A stretch of DNA of 64,000 nt from a bacterium (GCA_021811405.1 JAJZOZ010000001.1:5103-69102), one strand, 5' to 3'. Shown: positions 11,218 through 34,981, counted from the stretch's first letter. Program-made: numbers and translations. The notes: a model not told the origin generated them from the letters alone.

Positions 11218-11218
11218 T

Positions 11219-12676: not shown

Positions 12677-12679
12677 GCC

Positions 12680-16417: not shown

Positions 16418-16928
16418 CGCCGCCGCGCTGCTGCTGGCCGGCTGCCTGGCGTCCGTCCGCCTGGCTTCCGTGCACGCGCCCTACGGGCGGCATAATTGCG
16501 AGGCCTGCCACGACGTGGGCGGCACGCTGGCCAGGGGGGTTTCGGCCTCTTCCTATTCGGACCGCGTGAAGGAAGAGGCCGCCGGCGGGGACTATTCCCT
16601 TTCGCCCGGCGAGGAAGTCCCCTCGCTTCTCCGCTACCGGGTGGACAGGCTTTGTTTCCAGTGCCACCGGGAGCTGGACCCGGCCTCTCCGGGCTACGAG
16701 GGGAAATGGCTGCACGGTCCGTTCCAGGCCGGCGTGTGCCTGGCCTGCCATCAACCGCACGAATCCGCGAACCCCCGTCTTCTGGTGGCCTATCCGGTGG
16801 AGAAGCTCTGTTCCATGTGCCATTCCGGGTTCCACGGCAAGGAGGGGGCCTCCCGTTATCCCGGGAAGCCATGCCTGGCCTGCCATTCCCCGCATTCCCA
16901 GGAGAAAGCCGCCAGGACCCCGGACTGA
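16347..16928 (+). CDS. Pentahaem c-type cytochrome, probable lipoprotein
   Basis: Lipobox LLAGC. CXXCH motifs CEACH, CFQCH, CLACH, CSMCH and CLACH. The start is uncertain: ATG 16347 overlaps the upstream gene by 71 nt, and an alternative TTG at 16398 gives MSVYTGSAAALLLAGC. Confidence 0.7.
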   Translation: MRRQAAKIWRWPNTARRLSVYTGSAAALLLAGCLASVRLASVHAPYGRHNCEACHDVGGTLARGVSASSYSDRVKEEAAGGDYSLSPGEEVPSLLRYRVDRLCFQCHRELDPASPGYEGKWLHGPFQAGVCLACHQPHESANPRLLVAYPVEKLCSMCHSGFHGKEGASRYPGKPCLACHSPHSQEKAARTPD

Positions 16929-16933
16929 GGGGG

Positions 16934-19381: not shown

Positions 19382-20428
19382 ATGCGGTCCATCGTGCTGT
19401 CTTTGGCGGTTATGGGCGGTCTCTTCGCGGTGTACGGGACGCCGGCGGCGGCCGCCGCCGAAGCGAAAGAAATAGTCTTCCCGGCTCCGCCCGACGTGCC
19501 GCGCATAAAATATCTCAGAAGCCTCGCGCGGGAATCCGATATTTCCGGCCGGAAATCCGGCATGTGGGGCAAGTTCCTCAACGCCATCACCGGCAAGGAG
19601 GCGTCCAACATCTTCATGACCAGGCCGTACGACGTCTGCGCCGACACCGGCAGCGTCTACGTCTCGGACAGCGAGGGCGGGGCCGTGGTGGCGTTCAACC
19701 TGCAGAGCGGGAAAGCCTACAAGATCGGCGGCACGCTGGAGGGGAGGCTGGTCTCCCCGATGGGAGTGGCGCTGGATTCCTCGGGCAGGCTTTTCGTGGC
19801 GGATTCGGCCGGGGACACGATAAAGGTCTTTTCAGTGAACGGAGATTTTCTTTTTCGCTTCGGCCTTTCCGGCTCCGGGCCCGGGCAGTTGAAAAAGCCG
19901 CTGGACGTGACCTATGACCGCGGGCGCGACAGGATACTGGTGGCGGACAGCGGCAACGCGCGGATACAGATTTTCGACACCGCCGGAAAGTTCATAGCCC
20001 AGATAGGGAGCCGCGGGACCGCCGACGGCCAGTTCTCCATTCCGGTCGGGGTGGCCGTGGCCCCGGACGGGCGGGTGATCGTCTCTGATACCATGCTCTG
20101 CCGGGTGCAGGAATTCTCACCTGACGGGAAGTTCCTCCTGAAGTTCGGCGAGCAGGGGGACAGCCTGGGCTACTTCGCCCGGCCCAAGGGAGTGGCCACG
20201 GACAGCGACGGGAACATCTACGTGGCGGACGCGCTTTTCAGCGCGATACAGATCTTCGATCCGAAGGGCGAGCTGCTGATGCATTTCGGGGCCGAGGGCG
20301 GCGAGCCCGGCGCTTTCCAGCTGCCCATCGGCGTCTACGTGGACGACCAGGACAAGGTCTATATCGCCGATTCTTTCAACCAGCGCGTCCAGGTCTTCCA
20401 GTACCTGAAGCAGCCTAAAGCGCCTTAG
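19382..20428 (+). CDS. Exported NHL-repeat six-bladed beta-propeller protein (paralog 1 of 4)
   Basis: RBS AAAGGAG and a signal peptide. Repeated NHL-type units (P.GVA.D..G.I.V.D..N.R.Q.F). Conserved N-terminal VFPAPPDVPRIKYL and C-terminal QRVQVFQYLK. Confidence 0.85.
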   Translation: MRSIVLSLAVMGGLFAVYGTPAAAAAEAKEIVFPAPPDVPRIKYLRSLARESDISGRKSGMWGKFLNAITGKEASNIFMTRPYDVCADTGSVYVSDSEGGAVVAFNLQSGKAYKIGGTLEGRLVSPMGVALDSSGRLFVADSAGDTIKVFSVNGDFLFRFGLSGSGPGQLKKPLDVTYDRGRDRILVADSGNARIQIFDTAGKFIAQIGSRGTADGQFSIPVGVAVAPDGRVIVSDTMLCRVQEFSPDGKFLLKFGEQGDSLGYFARPKGVATDSDGNIYVADALFSAIQIFDPKGELLMHFGAEGGEPGAFQLPIGVYVDDQDKVYIADSFNQRVQVFQYLKQPKAP

Positions 20429-20478
20429 GACCGGCCGGGGCGCCGGAATATGACGCCGATCGCGGAGCCTGCGGTCCC

Positions 20479-20508
20479 TTGACAACGGCGCGGCCGCGGG
20501 GGTATACT
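20479..20508 (+). promoter_or_regulatory. Sigma-70-type promoter
   Basis: TTGACA-N18-TATACT, about 30 nt upstream of GTG 20539. Confidence 0.55.
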
Positions 20509-20538
20509 TCGCTAAGAACGCGCCGTACCGGAGGAGCG

Positions 20539-21102
20539 GTGAAAACCAAGGTCATACTTCTTTTCATGTCGGTGACGCTGCTGCTGGCTTATTTCGCGCA
20601 TAGACGCGGGAAGCCGGTGACGGTCCCTTCCGACCTGCGCGATTCCGTGATAACCGTTCATGGCTCTTCCGGGGTTCCCGGTTTGGCGCCGCAGTGCCTG
20701 TCCGGCGGCCTTCCGCACAGGGCCGCGGCCGCCGCCGCCTGGGACGGCGGCGGAGCGCTCGCCGCCGGCGTTCAGTCTTCCCCGATGGCGCAGGGAGTAT
20801 ATTCCTGCCTGTCCTGCCATGACGGCACGGTGGCGCCGGCGGATAAGTCGTATTCGGCCGCGCTCGGCTTTTCCGGCGGCGCGCCGGAGGGCGGCTCCGC
20901 CGGAAATCACCCGGTGGGCGTGGATTACGGGGAGGCCATGCGCGCCCGCCCAGGCGAGTACAATGACCCGCATTCCAACCCGGATATCAGGCTTTCCGGG
21001 AACAAGGTCACGTGTCTTTCCTGCCATGCCAGCGAACTGACGGCCGGCCTGCAAATGCCCGGCGGCCAGACCGCTCTTTGTCTCTCCTGTCACAGGCTTT
21101 GA
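20539..21102 (+). CDS. Small c-type cytochrome, 3 CXXCH, divergent member of the tetrahaem family with a degenerate first haem site
   Basis: GTG start preceded by GGAGGAG. TM/signal segment VILLFMSVTLLLAYFA. The motif CLSCH occurs three times, and GNHPVGVDY is present. The position of the first motif reads CLSGGLPH. Confidence 0.7.
   Translation: MKTKVILLFMSVTLLLAYFAHRRGKPVTVPSDLRDSVITVHGSSGVPGLAPQCLSGGLPHRAAAAAAWDGGGALAAGVQSSPMAQGVYSCLSCHDGTVAPADKSYSAALGFSGGAPEGGSAGNHPVGVDYGEAMRARPGEYNDPHSNPDIRLSGNKVTCLSCHASELTAGLQMPGGQTALCLSCHRL
20994..21102 (+). repeat. Direct repeat copy A (3' end of the trihaem cytochrome gene)
   Basis: About 90% identical by eye to 28422-28530, with a perfect 59-nt core (21016-21074 = 28444-28502). 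Confidence 0.9.
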
Positions 21103-21450
21103 GCGCGCTTACCGCCTGCTCCGGCTTTTTGCCGGACCGGCCGGAAGATCGCGTGCCTTTTACCGGGCGTTCACTGATCGATGGATACGCTGAGGGCTTG
21201 TTTTCTGGCGTCCGCTTCATTGCCTGTTCCGCGGATCGCGGAGTCCGCCCGCGGCGGACGCCGCCCCTTGCCCGCATACCGCGTGTATGCCCGCTCATCG
21301 CGGCTTGTTCCCGGACAGCGCCGCTGAGCGCCACCCACAGCCGTCTCCGGCCTATGGCCGTGCCAGGAGCTATGCCCGTCGAACAGCCAAATCCGGGCCG
21401 CCATAAGTCATATTGCTTATGCGCGGGCCGGTTAATGAGGAAATACTGTT

Positions 21451-22512
21451 ATGCGTAATCCACCCGCCAGACCCGTCCAGCGTAGTTTATGGAGCGCGTT
21501 CGCCGCCAAATGCGCCATTGCCCTTTTCGCCGGCAGTTTGGCGGGGCCGATCGCCGCGCATGGCCAGGACATCGTCTTTCCGCCGGCTCCGGATGCTCCG
21601 CGCGTGCGCTATCTGTACAGCCTCAGCGGGCCGCAGGACATCAAGCCGAAAGTGTCCGGGTTCAGGGCTTTTCTGCTGAAGCTTGCCGGTAAAGGCCCGC
21701 GGTCCGGCCAGGCCATGGTGCGGCCTTACGGCGTGTACGCCGCCTCCGGCCGCGTCTTTGTAGCCGATACCGGCGGCATGGCCGTGGCGGTGTTCGACCG
21801 CGGCGCAAAACGGCTGACGAGGATCGGCGGTTCGCGGGAGGGCAGCCTTATCAATCCGATCGATGTTGCAGCCGATGAGGCCGGCAATATCTACGTTACG
21901 GATTCCGGGCTGAATCTGGTCAAGGTTTACGGGCCGGACGGGAACTTCCTGAGGCAACTGGGCACGGCTTCGGGACTGTCGCATCCCACGGGCATCGTTT
22001 ACGACGCCGGCCGCAAACGGCTGATCGTCGCCGATACGGGGAACTCCCGCCTGGTCCTGTTCGACGCGGGCGGGAAAATGTCGGGGACTATAGGCCGCCG
22101 GGGAACGGAAAAGGGGGACATGTCGGTGCCGATAAATCTGGCGCTGGACAGGGAAGGCGATATCTATGTCGTGGAGAACATGCTCAGCCGCGTCCAGATA
22201 TATTCTCCGGAGGGGGTTTTTCTTTCGCAGTTCGGCAAAAACGGCGACCTGCCGGGCTATTTCGCCAGGCCAAGAGGCATAGCCCTTGACAGCGACGGCA
22301 ATATTTATGTCGTTGACGCCTTGATGAATATGGTGCAGATTTTCGACCGGGAAGGGAAACTGCTGCTGTTCTTCGGAGGCGGCGGCGCGGAGCCGGGCAC
22401 GTTCCAGCTGCCTGCCGGAATTTTCATAGATCCGGAGGACCGTATTTATGTGGTGGATTCCAACAATAGGCGTGTCCAGGTTTTCCAGTATCTGAAGCCG
22501 CCTCCGAAATAG
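21451..22512 (+). CDS. Exported NHL-repeat beta-propeller protein (paralog 2 of 4)
   Basis: Signal peptide. IVFPPAPDAPRVRYL. NHL units. C-terminal RRVQVFQYLKPPPK. Confidence 0.85.
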   Translation: MRNPPARPVQRSLWSAFAAKCAIALFAGSLAGPIAAHGQDIVFPPAPDAPRVRYLYSLSGPQDIKPKVSGFRAFLLKLAGKGPRSGQAMVRPYGVYAASGRVFVADTGGMAVAVFDRGAKRLTRIGGSREGSLINPIDVAADEAGNIYVTDSGLNLVKVYGPDGNFLRQLGTASGLSHPTGIVYDAGRKRLIVADTGNSRLVLFDAGGKMSGTIGRRGTEKGDMSVPINLALDREGDIYVVENMLSRVQIYSPEGVFLSQFGKNGDLPGYFARPRGIALDSDGNIYVVDALMNMVQIFDREGKLLLFFGGGGAEPGTFQLPAGIFIDPEDRIYVVDSNNRRVQVFQYLKPPPK

Positions 22513-22625
22513 GGCTTGCGGCAGAAAACCGTTTGTGCGGGATTTCCCCCGGTCTGCGTGAAATCACCCGGATTTGCGGCGGCCGGAACAGCGGTTTCCA
22601 TTGGGAAAGGCGCGTTGCGGGGTGT

Positions 22626-22641
22626 TGGCAGAAACGCTGCA
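22626..22641 (+). promoter_or_regulatory. Candidate sigma-54 (-24/-12) promoter
   Basis: TGGCAGAAACGCTGCA has correct GG/GC register. It lies 88 nt upstream of ATG 22730. The palindrome CTTGACATGTCAAG (22661-22674) lies in the presumed 5' UTR. Confidence 0.65.
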
Positions 22642-22729
22642 CTAAGGATATATGGCGGGGCTTGACATGTCAAGTGCCGCGGCCGCGGCGGGGAAAATGC
22701 GCGGGGGACAGAGGAAACGGGGAGGCGTT

Positions 22730-23365
22730 ATGAAGAAACATGAATCCGTGTGGGCGGGCATGCTTATAGCGTGTGCCCTTGTTCTGCCGGCGCGGCCGGC
22801 GCGCGCAGTGGTTGCGGGTTCCCTGCACGACTTCACCGCGGCCCCGTATTCGCTGCTCACCACCTGTTCGGGCTGCCACGTGCCGCACCAGACCAAGACG
22901 AATGTCCCGTTATGGGCGCACGCGACATCCACGTATACCTACACATTGTATAACCAGAACGCGGCGTATGTCGTGAAAAGCCCCGCCTTCACTTACGATG
23001 CGTCCCCGAGCGCCCTCACGGGCAGCAAATCGCTGTTATGCCTGGGCTGCCATGACGGTACGGTGGCGGTATCCGGCACGAACTATATCACGCAGGCCTC
23101 GGCCTCCTGGATACTTTATGACGCCGGAGCGAAGGTGGGCGGCCAGGCGAGCGCCAATCCGTCGGCCGGCCTGAAAGGCAGCCATCCTATCGGTGTCGTC
23201 TACCAGGCGGTGGCGGGGAAATATAATGATATCTCGCTCGACCCCGATGTGAAGCTGGACAGCACCAAGGTCCAATGCACTTCGTGCCACAACCCGCACA
23301 ACCTGTTCCCCAAGATGCTGGTGAAATCAGGCGCCGCGCTCTGCACCACCTGCCATATAAAGTAA
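22730..23365 (+). CDS. Tetrahaem c-type cytochrome (211 aa), cassette A
   Basis: Start at ATG 22730 (RBS GGGGAGG, signal MKKHESVWAGMLIACALVLPARPARA). Motifs CSGCHVPH, CLGCHDG, CTSCHNPH and CTTCHIK, plus NVPLWAH and GSHPIGVVY. Confidence 0.85.
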   Translation: MKKHESVWAGMLIACALVLPARPARAVVAGSLHDFTAAPYSLLTTCSGCHVPHQTKTNVPLWAHATSTYTYTLYNQNAAYVVKSPAFTYDASPSALTGSKSLLCLGCHDGTVAVSGTNYITQASASWILYDAGAKVGGQASANPSAGLKGSHPIGVVYQAVAGKYNDISLDPDVKLDSTKVQCTSCHNPHNLFPKMLVKSGAALCTTCHIK

Positions 23366-23437
23366 CGCGCGGCAGGAACGGCCCGCCGGGGTTTTTAAGC
23401 ACGGGGGCCGCTGTTTCCGGGAATCCAGGATGATAAA

Positions 23438-24490
23438 ATGCGCTGGAAAACGGCCGGCATCAGTCTGAAAACGCTGAAGTTTCCAGCCATGCTGCTGGCT
23501 ATAGCGTTCACGGCAGCCGCCGCGGCGTCCGTTGGCGGGCGTGTCTGGCCCCCGGCCCCGGATAAGGCGCGGATCCGGCTGATAGCCGTGCTTCCCGAAG
23601 CGGCGCAGGAGGACAATGCCGGGCCGCTTTTTCTGAAAATTTTACGCCGCCTGGCCGGCCTGAAGCCGGGCAAGCGCCGCGGTCCGGGGTTTGTGCGCCC
23701 CACAGGCGTGGCCGTGCGCGGCCGCGTCGTCTATGCCGCAGACCCGGGAGCCGGAGGCGTTGTCATCTATGACACCGAAAAACGTTCCTGCAGCCTGATT
23801 CCGGCCAACCGCCGCAACCGCCTGCCTTCTCCGGTAGGAGTGGCGGCGGCTTCCGACGGGAGCATATTCGTCAGCGATTCCCGGCTGCGGAAAGTTCTTC
23901 TGTTCGACGCCGGAGGCCGCGCCAGCGGCGAACTTAAACCCCCGCCGGGCGCTTTCATGCGGCCGGGTGGTCTGGCTCTGGACGAGGCCCGCGGCCGGCT
24001 GTGGGTGGCCGACGCTGCGGCGCATATGATCTACGCCTATTCTCTCGGCGGAGAATACCTGTTTTCCATCGGCGCGCGGGGCCAGGCGCCCGGCAGTTTC
24101 AATTATCCCACCTATCTCTGGGCCGATACGCGCACAGGAGCCCTGTGGGTCTGCGACTCCGGCAACTTCCGCGTCCAGTCCCTTGACGCCGCCGGGCGGC
24201 CGACAGGGGCTCTGGGGCGCAACGGCAACTGCCCCGGTTATCTGGCGCGGCCGCGCGGCGTGGCCGCAGATTCCGAAGGCCACGTCTATGTGGCGGACGG
24301 CGCGATGTCCGCCGTGCAGATATTTGACGAGAGCGGGCGGTTATTGCTGTATTTCGGAGAGCGGGGCGGCCAACCGGGCGAGTTCTATCTGCCGGGGGGG
24401 GTGTTCATTGACGGCGACGACAGGATATATGTCGCCGATACCTATAACGCCAGGGTGCAGGTATTCCAGTACCTGAAGGACGCGCCATGA
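23438..24490 (+). CDS. Exported NHL-repeat beta-propeller protein (paralog 3 of 4), cassette A
   Basis: Signal peptide. VWPPAPDKARIRLI. NHL units. C-terminal ARVQVFQYLKDAP. ATGA overlap with the next gene. Confidence 0.85.
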   Translation: MRWKTAGISLKTLKFPAMLLAIAFTAAAAASVGGRVWPPAPDKARIRLIAVLPEAAQEDNAGPLFLKILRRLAGLKPGKRRGPGFVRPTGVAVRGRVVYAADPGAGGVVIYDTEKRSCSLIPANRRNRLPSPVGVAAASDGSIFVSDSRLRKVLLFDAGGRASGELKPPPGAFMRPGGLALDEARGRLWVADAAAHMIYAYSLGGEYLFSIGARGQAPGSFNYPTYLWADTRTGALWVCDSGNFRVQSLDAAGRPTGALGRNGNCPGYLARPRGVAADSEGHVYVADGAMSAVQIFDESGRLLLYFGERGGQPGEFYLPGGVFIDGDDRIYVADTYNARVQVFQYLKDAP

Positions 24491-26367
24491 AGAAAATGTC
24501 CGCCGCTGCCGCCTCCGCCGCGCCGGCCGCCATTTCGCTGCTTCTGGCCGGCGCGCTGTTCCCGCCTCCGGCGCGCGCGCTTGTCGTCGCCGGTTCTAAA
24601 CACGATCTCTCTCCCGGTTCGGGCACGTCCCAGACCTGCATATTCTGCCACACGGCCCACCAGGCCAAGCGGAACGTCCCGCTGTGGAATCATTACGTGA
24701 CCACCCAGACCTTCACCTTCTACTCCTCCAACCATCTCAACACCTACCTCGCCATCGCCGCCCCGACCATGGCCGACCTCCCCGGAACTCGCACGGAGCT
24801 GTGCCTGTCCTGCCATGACGGGATGACGGCCCTCGGAGGCCTCTACAATCTGGGCGGGGAAACCATTTCAAAACCCCCGGCCGTTACGGGCCCCGCCAAC
24901 CTGGGCACTAACCTCGCCGACGACCACCCGGTGCTTTACGACGTCAAGCCCGGCGCGGGTCCGCCCGGCTCGCCCGGCACCGACCCCGAGATACAACTGC
25001 CGCTTGCCGGCGACGCGGTCAAGGTCTACGGCGCCGCCAACAGGGTGGAGTGCACTTCCTGCCATGACCCGCATGATAACCAGTTCGGCCATTTCCTGGT
25101 CAAATCCAACGCCAACGCGGCCATCTGCACGACATGTCACATAAAATCCGGCTTTTCCGCCTCCGCGCACGCGACTTCCGTCGTGGCCTATACTCCGCCA
25201 GGCGAAGCGGCGACCACCGTCGGCGAGTGGTCATGCCGGAACTGCCACCGTTCCCACGGGGCGTCCGCGACGCAGGCCTACATCCTGCGCGGAGCCGAGG
25301 AGGCCACCTGCTACCAGTGCCACGGCAATCCTCCCCTGGCCGGCGCCAGGAATATGCAGGCGCTCTTTCTCAAAGCCTCCAGACACCCGACGGAAACGGT
25401 CTCGGCCAGGCATAAGGACCCGGAGACGGACGGCTCCAATTTCACGTATTCGCCGCTCAACAACAGGCATGCGGAATGCCAGGACTGCCATAATCCGCAC
25501 CAGGCCAAGACCGGCACCCATACCGCGCCCGCCAATAACATCTCGAACGTACTGCTGGGCCAGTGGGGCGTGGAACCCTCTGACGGCGCGATCTGGACCG
25601 CGGCCATCGCCTATGTCCGCCAGGTCTTCGCTAACACGACAGGCTACAAGGAGTACCAACTCTGTCTCAAGTGCCACTCCTACTACGCCTTCGGCGCCAT
25701 ACCCGCTCCCAATATCACGGACCAGACCGTCGAGTTCAATATCAATAACAAGGCCGCTCATCCTGTCCGCGCGGGTCTCAGCGGCCAGACCGGGAGCGTT
25801 GCTCCGAAGGCTTTGACGGCCGGCCAGATGTCGGCGCCGTGGACGACCGCCGGCACCCAGACGATGTACTGCTCGGACTGCCACGATTCTGACGTCGCTG
25901 CCGATCCCAAGGGTCCGCATGGCTCGGCCGGAACGTGGCTCAAGAAAGGCCCCAACGTCTACTGGCCCAGGGACGCCGCTCTGGCGCTGTATACGCTGGG
26001 CGCCAACAACACTACCGACGCGCATCTGGCGGGACTTTTCTGCCGCAACTGCCATCCTTTGAGAAGCGCGACAGCAAATACCTGGTACAACAACGCCCAC
26101 CAGGAGCACAGTGGGGCGCAGGTAAGCAATGTCCCCTGCGTGGCCTGCCATGTGGTGGTCCCGCACGGCTCGCGCCGCGGGCGGCTCATCGGCTACGCGG
26201 CTGAAAGCGCCCCCTACAACAACAACGGCGCGGGAACCCTTGAAAAACTCGTGCTGAGCGGCTTTAAGAAAGCGACGACCCCCGTAGGATACGTCACGGG
26301 AAACTGTTACTCCACCGTCGCGGGATGCAGTTCGGTGCATACGAACGCGGGTGGCTATGATCCCTGA
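24487..26367 (+). CDS. 11-haem c-type cytochrome (626 aa), cassette A
   Basis: Signal peptide. 11 CXXCH motifs: CIFCH, CLSCH, CTSCH, CTTCH, CRNCH, CYQCH, CQDCH, CLKCH, CSDCH, CRNCH and CVACH. The first ~215 aa are homologous to the small tetrahaem proteins. Confidence 0.9.
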   Translation: MKKMSAAAASAAPAAISLLLAGALFPPPARALVVAGSKHDLSPGSGTSQTCIFCHTAHQAKRNVPLWNHYVTTQTFTFYSSNHLNTYLAIAAPTMADLPGTRTELCLSCHDGMTALGGLYNLGGETISKPPAVTGPANLGTNLADDHPVLYDVKPGAGPPGSPGTDPEIQLPLAGDAVKVYGAANRVECTSCHDPHDNQFGHFLVKSNANAAICTTCHIKSGFSASAHATSVVAYTPPGEAATTVGEWSCRNCHRSHGASATQAYILRGAEEATCYQCHGNPPLAGARNMQALFLKASRHPTETVSARHKDPETDGSNFTYSPLNNRHAECQDCHNPHQAKTGTHTAPANNISNVLLGQWGVEPSDGAIWTAAIAYVRQVFANTTGYKEYQLCLKCHSYYAFGAIPAPNITDQTVEFNINNKAAHPVRAGLSGQTGSVAPKALTAGQMSAPWTTAGTQTMYCSDCHDSDVAADPKGPHGSAGTWLKKGPNVYWPRDAALALYTLGANNTTDAHLAGLFCRNCHPLRSATANTWYNNAHQEHSGAQVSNVPCVACHVVVPHGSRRGRLIGYAAESAPYNNNGAGTLEKLVLSGFKKATTPVGYVTGNCYSTVAGCSSVHTNAGGYDP

Positions 26368-26434
26368 ATCCCGCCGTTGCGCCGGGAGAAGGTGATGCCG
26401 GCCGGAATGGTTCCCGGGTTGGGAGGGCGAACTC

Positions 26435-28108
26435 ATGCGCCGCCATACCAGCTGTCTGCTCTGCGTTTTCTGGCTGCTGAAGGCGGCCGTACCCGCAGCG
26501 CGAGCGCAATCCCCGTACGCAGCGTCCGGCCGGCTCGGCTGGTCCTATGACGACGTCATGGTCCGGACCCCGGAGGGAAGCAGGCGCATCGCGATAGCCG
26601 GCCAGAAGTACAATCTGAACCTCCGGGGACCGTTCGGCCTGCCGGGGATCGGCGAAGGCTTCGCCACGCTCGACTATTCTGAAGGGAGGAACCTCTCGCA
26701 GGTCGTCGCAGGCGGGGGCGCCGCCCAGAAGCTGGTCGGGTATTCTATCGGCGGCAGCTTCCTCCCGCCGGAGGCGCGCGAATTCGTGTCGCTTGGCGGG
26801 ACGTTCGCGCGGAATTCCGACCGCACGGCCTGGGGCGCGGGTCCGCCCAGGAATCTCACGGACACGAGCTATGACGGCAATATCGGCCTGACGCTGCCCG
26901 GGCTGCCGAGCCTGCAGCTGAGCTGTCAGAACCTTCAGCGCCGCGACAGCGCCGAAGGCGCGCCGGCCAGCCAGGATATCATAACGTGGCGGGAGCGCGC
27001 GTCGTACGCCAAGGGCCCTCTGCGCTGGAATTACTTCCGCACCCGGCAGGATACAAGAGCCCTCGGTCCGGGAGTCCGGAGTTCCGGCAACGACGACCTT
27101 TCCACCGACCTGTCCCTGGACTATCCCGCTCTGCGCGTGCGCGGCCTGCGAAGCCTGGCCCTGCGCGCCTCGTTTACCCGCCAGGCGTTCGACAGCGCCG
27201 GGAACCGGAGGACGCAGCAGTCTATCGGCGAGAGCGGCTATCTCACCACGGCGCTTTCGCGCAGCGGACGGTTCGAGTCATATCTCGGCTACGGCGAGAG
27301 CTTTTCCCGCATCGCCGGGGAAAAAAGCCTGCGCTCCAGCCATAACCTGAGCCTGGTCAGCCAGTCGGTTTCGTCGCGCTGGAATGTGAACAACCAGGCC
27401 AAGTACTCCGCGGCCTCCGGCCCCGGCGTAAGCGGCCAGAGTCTCGACGAGAATTTCAACGCGGAGTCGCCGAGGTTCGGCAAATACTTCGTCTACTATC
27501 TGCAGAGCGCCGGCAGCGTCCGCTGGGGGGGATCCGGCGGAGGGACGGCCGGAGAATCGGCGTTGCAAAAACTCTCCTTCTATCCCCGCCCGGAACTGGA
27601 TGTCTACTGCCAGCAGAGCTACTCGGGTTCGGGCGCCAGGCTTGGCCGGGCGCGCGAGGACAGCCTCGGCTGGGCCGCGGGCGTCAATTGGCGGCCCGGC
27701 AGCCTTCTGGAAACCGCCGCCGACTACAGTCGGCAACGCGGCCGCGGTCTTCTTACTGACCAGCTGACGTTAAGTTATAAAGCCTTTCCGCTGGACAGTA
27801 TGACCATAGGATGCGGTTATTCCCTGCAGCGTACCCGGACTTACCGGCCGCTGCCGATGGAATCCGTGTACGGCACATTCAAAGCCGACCTTGGATATCG
27901 CCCGGCCGAGGGCCTCTCGCTGGACGCCAGCCTCCTGCGGCAACGGTTTGCCGGGGAGAATCCGGGCCGGCCAGGCGCCATGGATTATTCCCTGTCGGCG
28001 CTATACCAGCTGGGCGCAGTCGAAATGAGCGTTAAATACGAAAACCGCGCGATTTCAACGGTCAACGAATACAGCCGTCTGGCAGCGGAGTTCAGCCGGA
28101 ATTTTTAG
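26435..28108 (+). CDS. Large outer-membrane beta-barrel protein (557 aa), cassette A; putative porin partner of the cytochromes
   Basis: RBS GGGAGGG. Signal peptide ending AARAQ. Ser/Gly/Tyr/Arg-rich alternating beta-strand pattern throughout. C-terminal AAEFSRNF (terminal Phe). Paralog of 38586-40289. Confidence 0.7.
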   Translation: MRRHTSCLLCVFWLLKAAVPAARAQSPYAASGRLGWSYDDVMVRTPEGSRRIAIAGQKYNLNLRGPFGLPGIGEGFATLDYSEGRNLSQVVAGGGAAQKLVGYSIGGSFLPPEAREFVSLGGTFARNSDRTAWGAGPPRNLTDTSYDGNIGLTLPGLPSLQLSCQNLQRRDSAEGAPASQDIITWRERASYAKGPLRWNYFRTRQDTRALGPGVRSSGNDDLSTDLSLDYPALRVRGLRSLALRASFTRQAFDSAGNRRTQQSIGESGYLTTALSRSGRFESYLGYGESFSRIAGEKSLRSSHNLSLVSQSVSSRWNVNNQAKYSAASGPGVSGQSLDENFNAESPRFGKYFVYYLQSAGSVRWGGSGGGTAGESALQKLSFYPRPELDVYCQQSYSGSGARLGRAREDSLGWAAGVNWRPGSLLETAADYSRQRGRGLLTDQLTLSYKAFPLDSMTIGCGYSLQRTRTYRPLPMESVYGTFKADLGYRPAEGLSLDASLLRQRFAGENPGRPGAMDYSLSALYQLGAVEMSVKYENRAISTVNEYSRLAAEFSRNF

Positions 28109-28421
28109 CCCCCATGTTCTATAAGCGCGCCGGCGCCGATTTGTGTTTTACCGCCTTCGGCGCGCTGTCCGGGTATGCCTGAAAAACCGGCGCCCCCTCT
28201 TCCAAGGCCATAAGCCTTTAACGAGGTGAAAACGCAAATATTAAAATTAGTATATTCATCATTTTACCGCCGGCTATTCTTTCGGCGATCCGTTCCCCTG
28301 AACAGTTCCCGTACCGCAGCTCTTCCTGAATTTGCCCGCGGTTCTATTACAACTTCACGGTCAGGCTTAAAATATGGATCTTGCCCGGGTCGCCTATCTT
28401 GCTGGCGAAAAGGCGTAGTTG

Positions 28422-28530
28422 TTCCGGCGACAAGGTGACCTGCCTTTCCTGCCATGCCAGCGAACTGACGGCCGGCCTGCAAATGCCCGGCGGCCAGACC
28501 GCCCTCTGCCTCGCCTGCCACAGGCTGTGA
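28422..28530 (+). pseudogene. Orphan 3' fragment of a cytochrome gene (direct repeat copy B)
   Basis: Encodes ..GDKVTCLSCHASELTAGLQMPGGQTALCLACHRL*, nearly identical to the C-terminus of the 20539-21102 product. The frame is closed by TGA at 28327. There is no signal peptide and no ATG or RBS. An AT-rich patch lies upstream. Confidence 0.75.
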
Positions 28531-28563
28531 GCTCGCCCCGCCGCCGGCCGCCCCTCCGGGCGG

Positions 28564-29841
28564 TCAGCGCTCCCCGCCCCGGTCCAGCCCGAACAAGGTC
28601 CTGACAGCGCTTATCTTCGCCAGCGTCTCCTCGTCCGTACCGTTCCCGCCGTTCTTGAGGCCGGTGATGGGAGCGTGCAGGATCCTGCCGAGGACCCGCC
28701 TGGTGACCACGTCCAGCAGCTCGCGGTCCCGCTCCCCGAAGCGGCCGGCGTGCTTCTCCACCTCGCTGCGGCGGATCTCCTCGAAGAGCTCCGTCAGCTC
28801 CCTGATCGTGGGACCGGCGGCGAGGGAGAGGTGCCAGCGGGTGAACGCGGCGAGCTCCTCCTCTACGATAGTCCTCACCTTGGCGGCTTCGCGCGTCCGC
28901 TTGTCCAGGTTCTGGTCCACGATGCGCTGGAGGGCGTCGATATCGTGAAGGAAAACGTTGCCGACCTCGTCCGCGAGCGGGTCGATATTGCGGGGGACCC
29001 CGATGTCGATAAGGAAGAGCGGGCCGCGGTCGCGCTCGCGTTCCCCCATGGCCCGGCGTACGTCCTCCGCCCTGAGAACGTAGTCCGGCGCGGAGACCGA
29101 GCTGATGACGATGTCGGCCCGGCGCAGGTGGGTGTGAAGGGCGTCGAAGTCCACCGCCGTGCCCCCCAGCTTCCCCGCGACCTCCTCCGCCTTGCCGCGC
29201 GTGCGGTTGGTTATCAGCAGGTCCCGGACGCCCCTGCCGGCGAGGTGCCTGCCGGTCAGTTCGCCCGTTTCCCCGGCCCCTATGAGAAGGACGCGTTTCT
29301 GGTCCAGGCGCTCGAAGATCTTAGCGGCCAGCTCGGCGGCGGCGAAGCTGACGGAGACGGCGCCCTCGCCTATCCCGGTCTCAGCGCGGCTGCGCTTCCC
29401 GACGTGGAACGCCGTCTGGAAGAGCCGGTTCAGGAGCAGCCCGCTGGTGGAAAGCTCCGCGGCGAGGGAGAAGGCGTCCTTCACCTGCCCCAGGATCTGC
29501 ACGTCGCCCAGGACCATGGAGTCCAGGCCGGAGGCCAGCTCGAAGAGATGCTTCGCCGCCTCGCCGGAGCGGAGGGCGTAGAAATGCCCCGGGCGGGCCG
29601 CCTGCCGCGCCCCCTTGAAGTCCACCAGGAAATCCCGCAGCCGCTCCGGCCGCGGCTCGCCGGACGGGGAGACGGCGTAGGCCTCGGTCCTGTTGCAGGT
29701 GGAGACCAGGACGCATTCGCTGAACGCGCCGCTGCGCAGCGCGGGCAGCGCCTCCCGGAGCTCCTCGCGCGAGAAGCAGAGCTTCTCGCGGACGTCTACG
29801 GGAGCGGTCCTGTGGTTGAGTCCGACGCAGAGAAGGTCCAT
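28564..29841 (-). CDS. hemA: Glutamyl-tRNA reductase
   Basis: MDLLCVGLNHRTAPVDVREK. The motifs STCNRTE and GAGETGEL (NADPH site). Length 425 aa. Confidence 0.9.
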   Translation of the reverse strand: MDLLCVGLNHRTAPVDVREKLCFSREELREALPALRSGAFSECVLVSTCNRTEAYAVSPSGEPRPERLRDFLVDFKGARQAARPGHFYALRSGEAAKHLFELASGLDSMVLGDVQILGQVKDAFSLAAELSTSGLLLNRLFQTAFHVGKRSRAETGIGEGAVSVSFAAAELAAKIFERLDQKRVLLIGAGETGELTGRHLAGRGVRDLLITNRTRGKAEEVAGKLGGTAVDFDALHTHLRRADIVISSVSAPDYVLRAEDVRRAMGERERDRGPLFLIDIGVPRNIDPLADEVGNVFLHDIDALQRIVDQNLDKRTREAAKVRTIVEEELAAFTRWHLSLAAGPTIRELTELFEEIRRSEVEKHAGRFGERDRELLDVVTRRVLGRILHAPITGLKNGGNGTDEETLAKISAVRTLFGLDRGGER

Positions 29842-29862
29842 GGTTTGGCCGGAGGAACGCGC

Positions 29863-30687
29863 TCAGCTGAAATTGTGGAAGCCGCGGAAAAAGAGATTTA
29901 TGACGGTCATGGAGAGCAGGGCCAGGGCGAACCCCAGGATGGACAGGACGGCGAACTTCTTGCCGTACCAGCCCGCCGCCTCCCTCAGCCCGAGGCCGGC
30001 GCCGTACACCAGCCAGATGAGCGCGGTGCCGATGAGCTTCGGGTCCACGTAGGAATGCCCCGGGAACGCCCTGGCCAGCCACGCCATGCCGACCGCTATC
30101 GCCACGGTCAGGAAGAAAAAGCCCGTCGCCGTCGAGATGAAGCTCAGCCTTTCGAGTACCTCCAGGCTGGGCAGGCGCTCGTAGACGACGCCGAGCCGGC
30201 TGGACTTTATCTCGTGATAGAGCATCAGGTAGAGGAAGCCGTAGACGGCCGCGATCGCGAGCGCCGCGTAGCCGAGCAGCGCGCCGGAAACGTGTATCCC
30301 GAGAAGCCGGCTCTTCAGGACTGGATCCACGTCGGTCCTGTTCACGATCAGCAGCGAGGAGGCGAGCTGGAAGAGCAGCGGGAGACCGAGGATGAAACAG
30401 CCGGTGCCCTTCACCTTGGTCCAGTACTCCAGCAGGAAGTACGCGAGCGAAATGCTGAAGGCGATGACCGAGAGTATCTCCGGAAGGCTGGTGATGGGCG
30501 GGTGTCCCAGAAAGACCGTCCGGGCGAGCAGATAAGTGAGATGGACGGAAAGCGCGGCGATAAGCAGCGGCGTCTTGGCGGTCTTCGCGACGGGGCTCGC
30601 GCTGAAGAACGCCCTGGCGTACGCCGCTACTGTTGCCAGGTAAAGGAGCGGCAGCAGAGCGTTCAACGCGGTTATTGCATGGTTCAT
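29863..30687 (-). CDS. Cytochrome c assembly (CcsA/HemX-like) integral membrane protein
   Basis: About 8 predicted TM segments immediately upstream of hemA, as in hemA-hemX arrangements. The start at ATG 30687 is supported by the promoter at 30731-30759, so the track start at 30759 is rejected. Confidence 0.6.
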   Translation of the reverse strand: MNHAITALNALLPLLYLATVAAYARAFFSASPVAKTAKTPLLIAALSVHLTYLLARTVFLGHPPITSLPEILSVIAFSISLAYFLLEYWTKVKGTGCFILGLPLLFQLASSLLIVNRTDVDPVLKSRLLGIHVSGALLGYAALAIAAVYGFLYLMLYHEIKSSRLGVVYERLPSLEVLERLSFISTATGFFFLTVAIAVGMAWLARAFPGHSYVDPKLIGTALIWLVYGAGLGLREAAGWYGKKFAVLSILGFALALLSMTVINLFFRGFHNFS

Positions 30688-30730
30688 TGCCGTGTGCCGT
30701 AACGAAAAAACATACTGACCGGCCGGTTCA

Positions 30731-30759
30731 AGTTTATGTAAATCGTGTGTCGAAGTCAA
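30731..30759 (-). promoter_or_regulatory. Sigma-70-type promoter for the ccsA-like/hemA operon
   Basis: On the minus strand, TTGACT (30759-30754), N17, TAAACT (30736-30731). Confidence 0.55.
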
Positions 30760-31137
30760 GGGATAGGCCTGCCCCTGGATACGGGACCGGATGGGGGCTG
30801 CGCCGCGCGGCAGGGCGCTGTATCGGGAAGGACGGGGGGTCTTGGTCCTGGCGTCTCTGCCGGGAAATTTCCGCCTCCCTGCTATGGTATTTTCTGGAGA
30901 GTGTTTACATATTATAACGGGAAAGCCTCTTTATTAATGATTTATCTATATTATATATCAATGAAGGGGGTTGCGGGAAGCCAATTGTCATAATTTGGTC
31001 AAAAAACGCAGGGGTGGGGGTTTTCCCCCATGGGCAGAGCCCCCGGTTTTCATCAAAGCGCGGCATTCAGCTGGAAATAGGCTTGATGGACTTCAGATCT
31101 GCCGTTTCCCTATGAGAAATGCCGTCTTTGGCGGCTA

Positions 31138-31153
31138 TGGCAGGAATGCTGCA
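31138..31153 (+). promoter_or_regulatory. Candidate sigma-54 (-24/-12) promoter for cassette B
   Basis: TGGCAGGAATGCTGCA has correct register. It lies 79 nt upstream of ATG 31233. It overlaps the inverted repeat CTGCAC-N8-GTGCAG (31149-31168). An AT-rich tract at about 30900-30990 lies upstream. Confidence 0.65.
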
Positions 31154-31232
31154 CCAGTATTTGTGCAGTACCAGGCGGGTGTCTGGATTTTACAGGAAGA
31201 AAACAGCGAAAACGAAAATTATGGAGGAGATA

Positions 31233-31892
31233 ATGAAAAAGGCGAAAATCGCGGGTCTGCTGATAGCGATCTGCGCGATAACCACCGGTGTACAGCCGCT
31301 TCATGCTGCCATTGCCGGTTCAAAGCACGACTTCCGCCAGACCGGCGGTGGTTTTCCGATAACCGGCGTCACCGAGATGTGCGTGACCTGCCATGTGCCG
31401 CACAGGCCTCTGGTCAATGTTCCCCTGTGGAATCACTCGATCAGCTCGTATACCTACACGCTCTACAACCAGAACGCCGAGTACGCTTCCGGCAACAGCG
31501 CGGCTTACGACGCTTCCCCCAGCGGCCTGCAGAACTCCAAGTCCAGGCTGTGCATGTCCTGCCATGACGGTTCCGTCGCCGTGGCCAGCTCGGTGAAGAT
31601 ACAGAGCGCTTCCAACAACTGGATCCTCTGGGACAACGGCGCGGCCGTGGCCAACGGCTCCGGCACCGGCAACACCGGCATGAAGGGCTCCCACCCCGTG
31701 GCCGTCAACTACGCCACCGTGCAGACCGCCAACCCCACTGATTACGTGGCGGCCGCCAGCCTCGTGGACGTGAAACTCGACGCCGGCAAAGTGCAGTGCA
31801 CCACCTGCCACAACCCGCACAACAAGTACAACAAGATGCTCGTGGCGGACAACGCCGGCAGCGCGCTGTGCCTTAAGTGCCACATAAAGTAA
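31233..31892 (+). CDS. Tetrahaem c-type cytochrome (219 aa), cassette B
   Basis: RBS GGAGGAG. Signal MKKAKIAGLLIAICAITTGVQPLHA. GSKHDF. Motifs CVTCHVPH, CMSCHDG, CTTCHNPH and CLKCHIK. NVPLWNH. GSHPVAVNY. Confidence 0.9.
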   Translation: MKKAKIAGLLIAICAITTGVQPLHAAIAGSKHDFRQTGGGFPITGVTEMCVTCHVPHRPLVNVPLWNHSISSYTYTLYNQNAEYASGNSAAYDASPSGLQNSKSRLCMSCHDGSVAVASSVKIQSASNNWILWDNGAAVANGSGTGNTGMKGSHPVAVNYATVQTANPTDYVAAASLVDVKLDAGKVQCTTCHNPHNKYNKMLVADNAGSALCLKCHIK

Positions 31893-31980
31893 AGGGTATA
31901 GCGGGTCCCCTGAGGGCCTGACAGTACATAAGACGCCGGGCGCCACACACGCCCCCGGCGGCTTATTGAAGGGGGCGATG

Positions 31981-32008
31981 TTTACGCGGGAGGACGAAAA
32001 GGTATAAT
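31981..32008 (+). promoter_or_regulatory. Possible internal sigma-70-type promoter
   Basis: TTTACG-N16-TATAAT, 46 nt upstream of ATG 32055. The -35 box is weak. Confidence 0.35.
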
Positions 32009-32054
32009 TTATCCGGGTTTTTTCCGGCCGGATGTCCGGAGCCCGCTGATCAGG

Positions 32055-33077
32055 ATGAAAAAACTGCTGCTCTGTCTTCTTCTTGTCCCGCTTGCCATCG
32101 GCCCGGCCGCGGCCGGGGAGAAGCCGGTCTGGCCGGCTCCGCCGGACAAGCCGCGTATAGAGTATCTGGAAACCCTGACGGCCGGCAAGAGGGCGGACGG
32201 AAAGCGCGGGAAATTCGGGAAAATGCTGGATTTCCTGCTGGGCGTGGTGTCGGGCGGCCGCTCCGAGCAGGAGTTCTTGCGGCCTACCGGCATATGGGTC
32301 ACCGAGAACGCGGTTTTCGTCGCGGATCCGGGCGTCGGCCGCGTCATGGTGCGCGACAAGGCTTCCGGGAAGTCCCGTTGGGTGCCGTCCGCCAGGCGGC
32401 ACAGGATGCCGTTCCCGGTGGGCGTGGCGGTAGCGCCGGACGGCAGGCTTTTCGTAAGCGATCCGGAGCTGGGAGGGGTTTCGGTCTTTGATCCGGAAGG
32501 AAAGCCCCTTCCCGGGCTGGCGGCGCCTCCGCAGGGGTTCCAGCGCCCTACCGGCCTGGCCCTGGACGCGAAGCTCTCGCGGCTCTACGTGTCCGACACC
32601 GGCACGCATTCCGTTTCCGCCTACGGCCTGGATGGCCGCTATCTTTTCACTTTCGGAGGCCGGGGCGGCGGCGCCGGGGAGCTGAACTACCCCACCTATC
32701 TCTGGGCCGACTCCGGCACCGGGAGGGTGCTGGTCTGTGATTCCGGGAATTTCCGGGTCAGGATATTCGACCCGGAGGGCAAGCCCGCCGGAGGTTTCGG
32801 GGAGATGGGCGACAGGCCCGGGTATCTGGCCAGGCCCAGAGGCATAGCCGCCGATTCTGACGGCGACGTCTATTCGGTCGACGGGGCGCTGGAGGCGGTG
32901 CAGATCTTCGACGAAAAGGGCCGGCTGCTGCTGTACTTCGGGGAGAGCGGCGGCGCGCCGGGTTATTTCTCGATGCCGGGAGGGATATTCGTGGACGGAC
33001 AGGACAGGATATACGTGGCGGATTCGTTCAACTCCCGGGTGCAGGTTTTCCAGTACCTCAAGGCGGACGCACGATGA
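32055..33077 (+). CDS. Exported NHL-repeat beta-propeller protein (paralog 4 of 4), cassette B
   Basis: Signal MKKLLLCLLLVPLAIGPAAA. VWPAPPDKPRIEYL. NHL units. C-terminal SRVQVFQYLKADAR. ATGA overlap with the next gene. Confidence 0.85.
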   Translation: MKKLLLCLLLVPLAIGPAAAGEKPVWPAPPDKPRIEYLETLTAGKRADGKRGKFGKMLDFLLGVVSGGRSEQEFLRPTGIWVTENAVFVADPGVGRVMVRDKASGKSRWVPSARRHRMPFPVGVAVAPDGRLFVSDPELGGVSVFDPEGKPLPGLAAPPQGFQRPTGLALDAKLSRLYVSDTGTHSVSAYGLDGRYLFTFGGRGGGAGELNYPTYLWADSGTGRVLVCDSGNFRVRIFDPEGKPAGGFGEMGDRPGYLARPRGIAADSDGDVYSVDGALEAVQIFDEKGRLLLYFGESGGAPGYFSMPGGIFVDGQDRIYVADSFNSRVQVFQYLKADAR

Positions 33078-34981
33078 GCGCGCTTTCCAGGACCATACTT
33101 TTCCCGGCGGCCTTGCTGGCCTTCGCCGCGGCCCCGTGCCGCGCAGCCTCCATAGTGAACTCCAAGCACGACATGTCCTCGCTGTCGGCCACCACCGGGC
33201 CCAAGTCGCTCTCCACCAGCGAGCGCTGCGTTTTCTGCCATACTCCGCACAGGGCCGGCGTGAACGTGCCGCTCTGGAACCAGTCGGTCACCACCCAGAC
33301 CTTCACTTTCTATTCCTCCAACTACGTCAACACCTACCTGGGCATGGCCGTCCCGACCATGGCGAAGCTGGCCGGCTCCCGCACCAAGCTCTGCCTCTCC
33401 TGCCACGACGGCATGACCGCGCCCGGCAGCGTGTTCAATCTGGGCGGGACCGGCGGCCGGCTGAACATGAGCGGTCCGCTGGGCTCCGCTTCCACCCTCG
33501 GCGTGAACCTGGCCGACGACCACCCGGTCCTTTACGGCGTAAACCCGGGCGCGGGTCCCCCGGTCCAGCCGGGGACCGACCCCGAGATACAGCTGCCGCC
33601 CGCCGGGGACAAGGTAAAGGTGTACGGCGCGGAGAACCTGGTGGAATGCACCTCCTGCCATAACCCGCACGATAACCAATACGGCCATTTCCTGGTCAAG
33701 TCCAACGCCAACGGCGCGCTCTGCACCACCTGCCATTACAAGACCGGCTTCTCCGCCAGCGCGCATAAGCTGTCGGCCGTCTCCTATACTCCGCCCGGGG
33801 AGAGCCCCACCACCGTGGGCGAGTGGGCCTGCCGCGACTGCCACCGTTCGCACGGGGCGTCCTCGGTGCAGGCTTACCTGCTGAGCGGCGCGGAAGAGGC
33901 CACTTGTTACGCCTGCCACGGCAATCCGCCGCTTACCGGGGCCAGGAACCTGAAACTTACCGTAGGCAAAGCCTACAAGCACCCGGTTGAGACCGTCTCC
34001 GGCAGGCACAAGGACCCGGAGACGGATGGCGCCAATTTTACGTATTCGCCGCTCAACAACAGGCATGCGGAATGCCAGGACTGCCATAATCCGCATCAGG
34101 CCAAGTCCGGCACGCATGTCGCCCCGACCAACGTCATTTCCAGCGTCCTGCTGGGCCAGTGGGGCGTGGAACCGGCCTACGGCACGGCCAGCTGGACGCA
34201 GCCCACCAGCTATTCCAGGAAGGTATTCGCCGACACGCTGAACTACAGGGAATACCAGCTCTGTCTCAAATGCCATTCCTCGTACGCGTTCGGGACTACG
34301 CCCCCGCCCGGAATAACGGACCAGTCGATAGAACTGAGCATAAATAACCGCGGCGCCCATCCGGTGATACGGGGGCTTAACAGCCAGACCGGCAGCACCA
34401 GCCCCAAGCCGCTGGCGGCCAACCAGCTTTCCAGCCCCTGGTCCGCCGCGCGCGGAACGCAGACCATGTACTGCTCGGACTGCCACGGCCCGGACAGCAC
34501 AACGGATCCCAAGGGTCCGCACGGTTCCGCCGGAGAACACATCTTGTCCGGGCCGAACGTCTACTGGCCCAGGAAACCCGGGGGGGCGCTCTACACTCTG
34601 GACGACTTCCCCGGGGGGAACAACTCCGGCGCCAACACCTCGGCTGGCCTGTTCTGCCTGAACTGCCACCCGATGTACTCCGGAACCAGTTTCTTCAACA
34701 ACGTCCACATGGAGCATAATCAGAAGAATCAGGGCGTTACTCATGCCTGCGTCGGCTGCCATCAGGTGATCCCGCACGGCTCAAAACGCTCCCGGCTTAT
34801 AGGCTATGCCTCCGACCAGGCGCCTTACAACTATAACGGGACGGGGGCGTTCGATAAGCTGGTCCTGTCCGGGTTCAAGAAGGCGACCAGCCCTACCGGT
34901 TATGTGAAAACGAACTGCTACGCTCCTGTTTCCGGTTGCAGCAGCGAGCACGGGATCAACTCGGGCGGATATGATCCATGA
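33074..34981 (+). CDS. 11-haem c-type cytochrome (635 aa), cassette B
   Basis: Motifs CVFCH, CLSCH, CTSCH, CTTCH, CRDCH, CYACH, CQDCH, CLKCH, CSDCH, CLNCH and CVGCH. Collinear with 24487-26367. Confidence 0.9.
   Translation: MSALSRTILFPAALLAFAAAPCRAASIVNSKHDMSSLSATTGPKSLSTSERCVFCHTPHRAGVNVPLWNQSVTTQTFTFYSSNYVNTYLGMAVPTMAKLAGSRTKLCLSCHDGMTAPGSVFNLGGTGGRLNMSGPLGSASTLGVNLADDHPVLYGVNPGAGPPVQPGTDPEIQLPPAGDKVKVYGAENLVECTSCHNPHDNQYGHFLVKSNANGALCTTCHYKTGFSASAHKLSAVSYTPPGESPTTVGEWACRDCHRSHGASSVQAYLLSGAEEATCYACHGNPPLTGARNLKLTVGKAYKHPVETVSGRHKDPETDGANFTYSPLNNRHAECQDCHNPHQAKSGTHVAPTNVISSVLLGQWGVEPAYGTASWTQPTSYSRKVFADTLNYREYQLCLKCHSSYAFGTTPPPGITDQSIELSINNRGAHPVIRGLNSQTGSTSPKPLAANQLSSPWSAARGTQTMYCSDCHGPDSTTDPKGPHGSAGEHILSGPNVYWPRKPGGALYTLDDFPGGNNSGANTSAGLFCLNCHPMYSGTSFFNNVHMEHNQKNQGVTHACVGCHQVIPHGSKRSRLIGYASDQAPYNYNGTGAFDKLVLSGFKKATSPTGYVKTNCYAPVSGCSSEHGINSGGYDP

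Follow-up and report, generated by a model that had tools for sequence, protein, structure and literature searches.

What do exported beta-propellers contribute to a cluster of cytochrome genes? The question is raised by a 64,000-nucleotide stretch of an Elusimicrobia metagenome-assembled genome (GCA_021811405.1, JAJZOZ010000001.1:5103-69102; hereafter the window), in which four genes encoding NHL-repeat propellers (NHL1 to NHL4) lie among genes for multihaem cytochromes. The association of such propellers with cytochromes is already in the literature (PMC5815863; bioRxiv 10.1101/2022.05.06.490989; bioRxiv 10.1101/2025.10.22.684050), and propeller function is not demonstrated in PMC5815863, bioRxiv 10.1101/695007, bioRxiv 10.1101/2022.05.06.490989, bioRxiv 10.1101/2025.10.22.684050 or PMC9070056. 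Our favoured answer, held with moderate confidence, is that the products of the four genes are the beta-propeller part of OmcE-type cytochrome clusters (nanowire or porin-cytochrome clusters) and that these propellers act as periplasmic assembly, docking or anchoring factors.

Fold and terminal motifs of the four propellers

The four predicted open reading frames are all present on the plus strand (Table 1), and cytochrome genes flank every one of them on both sides. NHL2 to NHL4 align with NHL1 from end to end at 35-45% identity, and NHL3 and NHL4 are 54% identical to each other. Their matches to the Pfam family NHL (PF01436; E 1e-27 to 1e-36) score 94-123 bits, which passes the gathering cut-off of 20. 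Signal peptides had been predicted for all four and were read off the sequence: each protein begins with positive charges, after which comes a hydrophobic stretch. Inspection of the N-termini revealed no lipobox cysteine in any of the four.

An AlphaFold2 model of NHL1, based on 40 homologues, has six blades and a mean predicted local distance difference test score (pLDDT) of 93, so that the structure prediction agrees with the propeller fold first read from the sequence. The best Foldseek matches of this model are the NHL domains of TRIM71 and Thin (E 1e-25; template modelling score, TM-score, 0.70/0.85); no propeller of the present family was found in the PDB. The eukaryotic domains (TRIM71, Thin, TRIM2 and Brat) have the same six-bladed fold, with about 34% identity over 264 columns and TM-scores of 0.70 when normalised to the query and 0.85-0.88 when normalised to the target. 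They are, however, cytoplasmic RNA- or protein-binding domains and lack the signal peptide, the [FW]PxxP lead-in and a 33-residue insert. This insert, which contains a helix and an invariant glycine, lies between the closing strand and blade 1 and is not found in these closest solved structures.

In the model, blades 1-5 are made of four strands apiece and blade 6 of just three C-terminal strands (residues 315-320, 325-330 and 335-341). The sole strand left over is N-terminal (residues 42-48, RIKYLRS, at the end of the PRIKYL motif; pLDDT 96). From the strand count of the model, and not from coordinates, it follows most simply that this PRIxYL strand is the fourth strand of blade 6 and runs alongside the C-terminal RVQVFQY strand. 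Pairing of an N-terminal with a C-terminal strand is the usual way in which propeller rings close. Because blade 6 has three C-terminal strands and strand 42-48 alone is left, the conserved termini probably serve propeller closure. The original prediction had proposed that the proline-rich N-terminal peptide docks into a partner; the strand count argues against this, and on that count we rejected a free docking peptide. The C-terminal motif is the ordinary final strand of an NHL repeat, a consensus strand that is kept throughout the family. A survey of the conserved columns found no conserved histidine or cysteine across the family, and the propeller itself is therefore not expected to be a redox or metal protein.

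The pattern V[FW]P[AP][AP]PD.[AP]R[IV] is present in all four window propellers, 5-8 residues past the likely cleavage site, and all four finish in N.RVQVFQYLK followed by 3-6 residues, as had been noticed. The proline-rich peptide, claimed to form the mature N-terminus, lies near it in the window lineage only; in most homologues the peptide is preceded by a lipidated cysteine and a linker of 9-19 residues. Of 8000 candidates scored in a profile search, 1683 proteins came out at E <1e-10, and their source names span at least 8 lineages; the strict N-terminal pattern is found in 88 of the 120 top homologues. When a profile of the N-terminal module was run against 1.84 billion representatives, the result was swamped by giant multi-NHL proteins that match the repeat-like end of the module; the full-length matches are all about 310-455 amino acids long, plus a few shorter fragments.

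Association with OmcE-type cytochromes

Scanning one genome per species gave a set of 79 loci (L001-L079) from about 15 phyla, with 138 propeller genes. Multihaem cytochrome genes are present in 75 of these loci, and three of the four others are contigs shorter than 3 kb. For 101 of the 138 propeller genes the next gene on the same strand has at least 4 haem sites; for 41 it encodes a 10- or 11-haem protein, mostly with a 4-nt overlap. The density of genes with at least three CXXCH motifs is 12.7 per 10 kb up to 500 nt from a propeller gene and 0.4 per 10 kb at a distance of 7-10 kb, a drop of about 30-fold. The adjacency of propellers and cytochromes is non-random. A dedicated, cytochrome-linked role had been proposed for the family on the strength of the four window copies, and the adjacency kept over these phyla bears it out; the opposite outcome, homologues residing mainly in loci devoid of cytochromes, is not what we observed. 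A frequent layout consists of a 4-haem gene, a propeller, a 4- or 5-haem gene, a protein of 560-710 amino acids, a second propeller and an 11-haem gene. A signal peptide is present in the 560-710 amino acid protein, which mostly ends in an aromatic residue.

The cytochromes next to the propellers are, more precisely, of the OmcE nanowire family. An OmcE-like gene directly adjoins 106 of the 138 propeller genes, and all four window propellers adjoin an OmcE-like gene or domain. Directly 3' of NHL3 and of NHL4, and overlapped by ATGA, stands a gene for an 11-haem (undecahaem) protein, and the first ~200 residues of both these proteins match the nanowire subunit OmcE of Geobacter sulfurreducens (PDB 7TFS) as well as the OmcE of Desulfuromonas soudanensis (9YUQ). 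The OmcE-like domain occupies positions 24487-25161 and 33074-33751 of the window. In the alignment, the four CXXCH motifs and the histidines of KHD, PH, DHP and [VP]H are present in the products of 22730-23365 and 31233-31892 and in both undecahaem N-terminal domains, and the set is incomplete in that of 20539-21102, which could be a non-polymerising or capping OmcE variant. All 48 of the 10/11-haem proteins matched by OmcE in loci L001-L079 contain the OmcE-like domain. By alignment, the widespread undecahaem cytochromes of the UetJ/OccP type open with an entire OmcE-like four-haem domain, in which even the KHD histidine of the N-terminus is kept. We found no solved relative of their seven-haem extension.

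The propellers fall into two types, type a being followed by a small cytochrome and type b by an 11-haem protein. NHL1 and NHL2 belong to type a, NHL3 and NHL4 to type b. Clustering by identity failed to separate the two types, and a nearest-neighbour test did separate them: in 78 of 85 cases the propeller's closest relative from a different locus shares its type, and type b propellers are 59% identical to the best type b elsewhere versus 37% to the type a of their own locus. On this sequence comparison the two types are separate orthologous groups, both ancient. We then compared distance matrices in the 15 loci having all four proteins. The correlation is higher for the cognate pairs (type a with the small cytochrome, r 0.86; type b with the 11-haem protein, r 0.71) than for the non-cognate ones (type a with the 11-haem protein, r 0.59; type b with the small cytochrome, r 0.57). 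The difference between cognate and non-cognate correlations is 0.20, with a range of 0.12-0.29 on subsampling, which is consistent with co-evolution of each propeller with its cytochrome.

A link between NHL genes and some Geobacter cytochrome loci had been raised in the original prediction, and the gene just upstream of omcE in Geobacter sulfurreducens indeed encodes a homologue with the same motifs. This locus (L082) reads ResB, CcsA, a 9-haem cytochrome, an 8-haem cytochrome, an NHL propeller, OmcE, a 752-amino acid protein and glycosyltransferases. Its propeller (L082:8338-9423) has a lipobox, the N-terminal sequence FWPPLPERPRIEWL and the C-terminal sequence ...RRFQVFQYI. The four window propellers match it with phmmer E-values of 9e-59 to 2e-46, and NHL2 aligns with it at 35% identity over 315 residues (BLASTP E 2e-60). 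The two propeller sets share the [FW]PxxPxxPRI motif, the helix-containing insert and the C-terminal RxQVFQY strand, and the two clusters have in common a pair of haem-rich cytochromes, an OmcE homologue and ResB/CcsA; each also encodes a large protein that lacks annotation and may be barrel-like (the 752-amino acid protein, ending in FF, in G. sulfurreducens). Because the propeller, 9-haem and 8-haem genes have matches in the G. sulfurreducens locus, and three more OmcE loci are arranged in the same order, positions 14139-40289 of the window constitute an expanded, partly duplicated omcE-type cluster with genes for haem synthesis and cytochrome maturation. In contrast to the G. sulfurreducens cluster, the window has four propellers without a lipobox and two putative barrel paralogues, and two of its propellers are coupled to undecahaem proteins, a kind of protein absent from the G. 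sulfurreducens locus. According to a 2025 preprint, every omcE cluster, in the five phyla where they were found, codes for OmcE together with a large barrel, a pair of multihaem cytochromes and a pair of beta-propeller lipoproteins (bioRxiv 10.1101/2025.10.22.684050); the Elusimicrobia host of the window lies outside these phyla.

Other reported systems resemble the window by gene order or by description. In the uet cluster of Candidatus Tenderia electrophaga, an NHL gene directly precedes an undecahaem gene, which is followed by ccsA/ccsB (bioRxiv 10.1101/2022.05.06.490989). The window series of NHL4, undecahaem cytochrome, ResB and CcsA, with its overlapping stops and starts, is alike, and it is this gene order alone that suggests homology to UetH/UetI. 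The window lacks the trihaem c7 proteins, the cupredoxin and the prolyl isomerase that are further members of Uet. OccP of the occ cluster in Candidatus Dechloromonas occultata is an undecahaem cytochrome predicted to be extracellular, with NHL neighbours (bioRxiv 10.1101/695007), and the 6-NHL proteins of that cluster are likened to the window propellers by gene order only. In Desulfovibrio ferrophilus IS5, NHL propellers lie beside outer-membrane cytochromes and were proposed to stabilise the complex; DFE_0451 and DFE_0463 resemble the window propellers, by description, in standing amid multihaem cytochrome genes with which they are co-expressed (PMC5815863). This organism is reported to have no obvious porin-cytochrome conduit (PMC9769857). 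The NHL gene GSU2505, beside omcS, was suggested to help in OmcS assembly or expression (PMC9070056), and for OscD, a beta-propeller-like protein of the omcS-companion cluster, the summary in PMC13194489 of Shen et al. 2025 gives a suggested role in filament morphology. GSU2505/OscD share with the window, again by description, a propeller gene beside a nanowire cytochrome gene, although OmcS belongs to a cytochrome family different from OmcE.

Possible site and mode of action

The homologues offer several clues to location. A lipobox cysteine stands 9-19 residues ahead of the motif in 68 of the 106 motif-bearing homologues, and a lipobox is absent from 38 of the 41 large and 47 of the 56 small partner cytochromes. 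The listed propeller copies of the Elusimicrobia loci L001 and L002 have no lipobox. One type a propeller lipoprotein (L037:67-1770) carries a C-terminal SPOR peptidoglycan-binding domain, which would place at least this member in the periplasm. Another product, the 1172-amino acid fusion L052:2151-5669, consists of a signal peptide, an NHL propeller, a hydrophobic segment starting with GGGGGCF and a 10-haem cytochrome domain. Because of the coupling to OmcE-fold genes, the lipid anchor, the fusion to SPOR and the pairing by type, we propose that the propellers are periplasmic partners of the cytochromes, close to the outer membrane. Solved OmcE filaments in the PDB contain OmcE chains only, and the propeller therefore does not belong to the filament body.

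In the mechanism that we favour, each propeller, at the periplasmic face of the outer membrane, would bind the OmcE-fold cytochrome that belongs to it and hold it in position, possibly unpolymerised, at the large beta-barrel of the cluster, through which the cytochrome would be exported or anchored. The propeller would be an assembly, docking or anchoring factor, outside both the electron path and the finished filament. Type a, encoded beside the small OmcE-type cytochromes, would serve these, and type b is translationally coupled to the undecahaem protein, in which the OmcE domain makes up the first third. We infer that the binding would be direct, that it would take place in the periplasm and that the cytochrome would be handed over to the barrel.

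The barrel candidates of the window are two paralogues of 557 and 567 amino acids. Both have signal peptides and one of the two ends in phenylalanine. Comparison with the porin-like proteins of other loci gave an hhalign probability of 86.6%. The AlphaFold2 model of the product of 26435-28108 is nearly all beta, with a pLDDT of just 43.5, and is unreliable. Only 4 homologues of the putative barrel proteins were found among 5.8 billion proteins, against thousands for the propellers and cytochromes on either side; evolution of the putative barrel proteins is very fast.

Several points weigh against the mechanism described above. The four window propellers are without a lipid anchor, so the tethering argument does not apply directly to them. 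The SPOR fusion and the cytochrome fusion are one case each. The barrel assignment is tentative, given the low model confidence and the handful of homologues. The binding of propeller to cytochrome is inferred from genes and sequence, and the cognate co-variation could stem from joint inheritance or transfer of adjacent genes and not from contact. One divergent member (L028:9794-11407) has no cytochrome gene within 10 kb, in the only long locus without such a gene; it reads FWPKPPDLPRF at the N-terminal motif and its C-terminal strand is not conserved. Finally, the physiological importance of such clusters is not settled.

The explanation that comes closest to ours makes the propellers permanent structural subunits of an outer-membrane porin-cytochrome conduit, bound to cytochromes and barrel and stabilising the complex, as was put forward for D. 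ferrophilus. The one-to-one gene coupling with 4-nt overlaps would suit a stable complex, as would the lipoprotein anchors carried by most homologues and lacking from the cytochromes, and expression comparable to that of the cytochromes accompanies the published stabilisation proposal (PMC5815863). The undecahaem partner is no known filament subunit, so type b could well stay bound. For type a, on the other hand, purified OmcE filaments consist only of OmcE, which excludes this type as a stoichiometric filament part, and no structure of such a complex was found in the PDB. The two explanations differ mainly in how long the propeller stays bound, and the type b data fit either. We regard permanent subunits as possible and rather unlikely.

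That the propellers are surface-exposed modules for adhesion or substrate binding, keeping minerals, electrodes or partner cells near the cytochromes, seems to us very unlikely. NHL propellers are generic binding platforms, and the G. metallireducens NHL protein Gmet_0556 has been interpreted as acting in adhesion, as cited in bioRxiv 10.1101/2022.05.06.490989. The SPOR fusion nevertheless points to the periplasm, the two types track their cytochrome partners and not habitat, and the best-conserved features are fold-closure and repeat residues, with no distinctive surface patch. The substrate-binding module, one of the roles first suggested for these genes, finds no support. An enzymatic role, for instance as lyases or lactonases like other six-bladed propellers, modifying the cytochromes or a small molecule, is barely credible and was rejected: weak Pfam matches to SGL/gluconolactonase and arylesterase and a fold in common with peptidyl-alpha-hydroxyglycine lyase are set against far stronger NHL matches and against invariant or near-invariant columns made of repeat glycines, prolines, aspartates and aromatics, with no histidine, cysteine or metal-site pattern.

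Our proposal of periplasmic assembly, docking or anchoring factors can be carried further. The undecahaem proteins could join the OmcE polymer as its base or tip. In the fullest version, a speculation that we consider unlikely, the cluster would build cytochrome nanowires in the manner of a chaperone-usher machine. Each of the two propeller types would act in the periplasm as the chaperone dedicated to a single OmcE-fold client, and the type b client, a UetJ/OccP-type undecahaem protein, would be the base or nucleator, with its seven-haem tail in the barrel and its OmcE domain seeding or anchoring OmcE polymerisation.

The wider cluster and its significance

The features of the window are collected in Table 1.

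Table 1. Genes and motifs of the omcE-type cluster, in window positions.
Feature	Position	Strand	Remarks
14-haem periplasmic-type cytochrome	14139-15452	+	14 CXXCH; Pfam Paired_CXXCH_1 E 5e-67; phmmer E 6e-102 to L082:6163-7275 (9-haem)
AhpC/TSA (thioredoxin-fold) and TPR fusion	15449-16417	+	Pfam; probable cytochrome-maturation helper
11-haem, 329-amino acid cytochrome	18308-19297	+	Directly 5' of NHL1; phmmer E 1.5e-27 to L082:7290-8282 (8-haem)
NHL1	19382-20428	+	Six-bladed propeller, type a; signal peptide, no lipobox
N-terminal motif of NHL1 (VFPAPPDVPRIKYLRS)	19475-19525	+	Includes strand 42-48, which by strand count in the AlphaFold2 model would complete blade 6; pLDDT 88-96
C-terminal motif of NHL1 (RVQVFQYLK)	20384-20410	+	Last strand of blade 6; model strand 335-341
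Degenerate OmcE-like cytochrome, 3 haems	20539-21102	+	First haem site, N-terminal His and one distal His lost
NHL2	21451-22512	+	Propeller, type a; of the four, nearest to the G. sulfurreducens omcE-cluster propeller
Full-length OmcE homologue, 4 haems	22730-23365	+	phmmer against PDB: 9YUQ E 3e-12, 7TFS E 5e-9; haem sites and distal His kept
NHL3	23438-24490	+	Propeller, type b; stop overlaps next start (ATGA)
Undecahaem cytochrome	24487-26367	+	11 CXXCH; OmcE-like four-haem domain (residues 27-220), then seven-haem extension; 7TFS E 3.6e-29
Putative outer-membrane beta-barrel, 557 amino acids	26435-28108	+	Signal peptide; end ...SRNF
Glutamyl-tRNA reductase HemA (haem biosynthesis)	28564-29841	-	
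CcsA/HemX-type membrane protein	29863-30759	-	Pfam Cytochrom_C_asm E 1.6e-27
Second full-length OmcE homologue, 4 haems	31233-31892	+	phmmer E 1.8e-16 to G. sulfurreducens OmcE
NHL4	32055-33077	+	Propeller, type b; ATGA overlap with following gene
Second undecahaem cytochrome	33074-34981	+	OmcE-like N-terminal domain; 7TFS E 5.4e-30, end-to-end with OmcE
ResB/CcsB, cytochrome c maturation system II	34978-36273	+	Pfam ResB E 2e-34
CcsA, haem handling in cytochrome c maturation	36261-37085	+	Pfam E 4e-36
B12-binding radical SAM enzyme	37082-38593	+	Pfam
Second putative outer-membrane beta-barrel, 567 amino acids	38586-40289	+	Paralogue of 26435-28108; BLASTP E 3e-80, 33% identity

The hemA and ccsA/hemX-like genes sit between the two cytochrome modules, on the minus strand. 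An open reading frame on the plus strand at 28675-30702 was rejected as spurious, the true genes being these two; in other loci it seems conserved because it is the antisense of hemA. Similarly, the plus-strand frame 16496-17665 is spurious, and the true gene there encodes a TPR protein on the minus strand. The radical SAM gene is part of the operon: it follows ccsA and precedes the second putative barrel gene, with stop and start codons that overlap, and it occupies the same position in L001, L002 and L045. Proteins combining a thioredoxin fold with TPR stand beside 13/14-haem cytochromes in several phyla (L013:14795-16429, L019:12802-13782 and L079:14214-15848), and the AhpC/TSA-TPR protein may keep the cysteines of apocytochromes reduced. 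Ahead of the cluster, positions 10030-14059 encode a sigma-54 DNA-binding protein, a histidine kinase and a sigma-54-dependent response regulator; pairs of kinase and regulator recur in many related loci (L001-L003, L018, L030, L060 and L072).

Research on the exchange of electrons between microbes and their surroundings has yet to explain the export, initiation and anchoring of cytochrome nanowires and outer-membrane cytochrome conduits, and among the invariant parts of such clusters the propeller is one of the few that are not cytochromes. The present analysis links propellers that had been reported separately in D. ferrophilus, Occ, Uet and the Geobacter omcE cluster, Geobacter by sequence and the others by gene order. 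What the window adds is an Elusimicrobia lineage, a non-lipidated variant and a duplicated cluster. The two orthologous propeller types, each paired with one OmcE-fold partner, provide concrete pairs for testing. A more novel by-product is that the widespread undecahaem proteins have an OmcE domain at their start, which suggests a role as base or nucleator. If the chaperone-usher-like machine were true, it would fill the place of the initiator subunit, which the 2025 preprint reports not finding in omcE operons (bioRxiv 10.1101/2025.10.22.684050), and it would extend the system to about 15 phyla, including Elusimicrobia.

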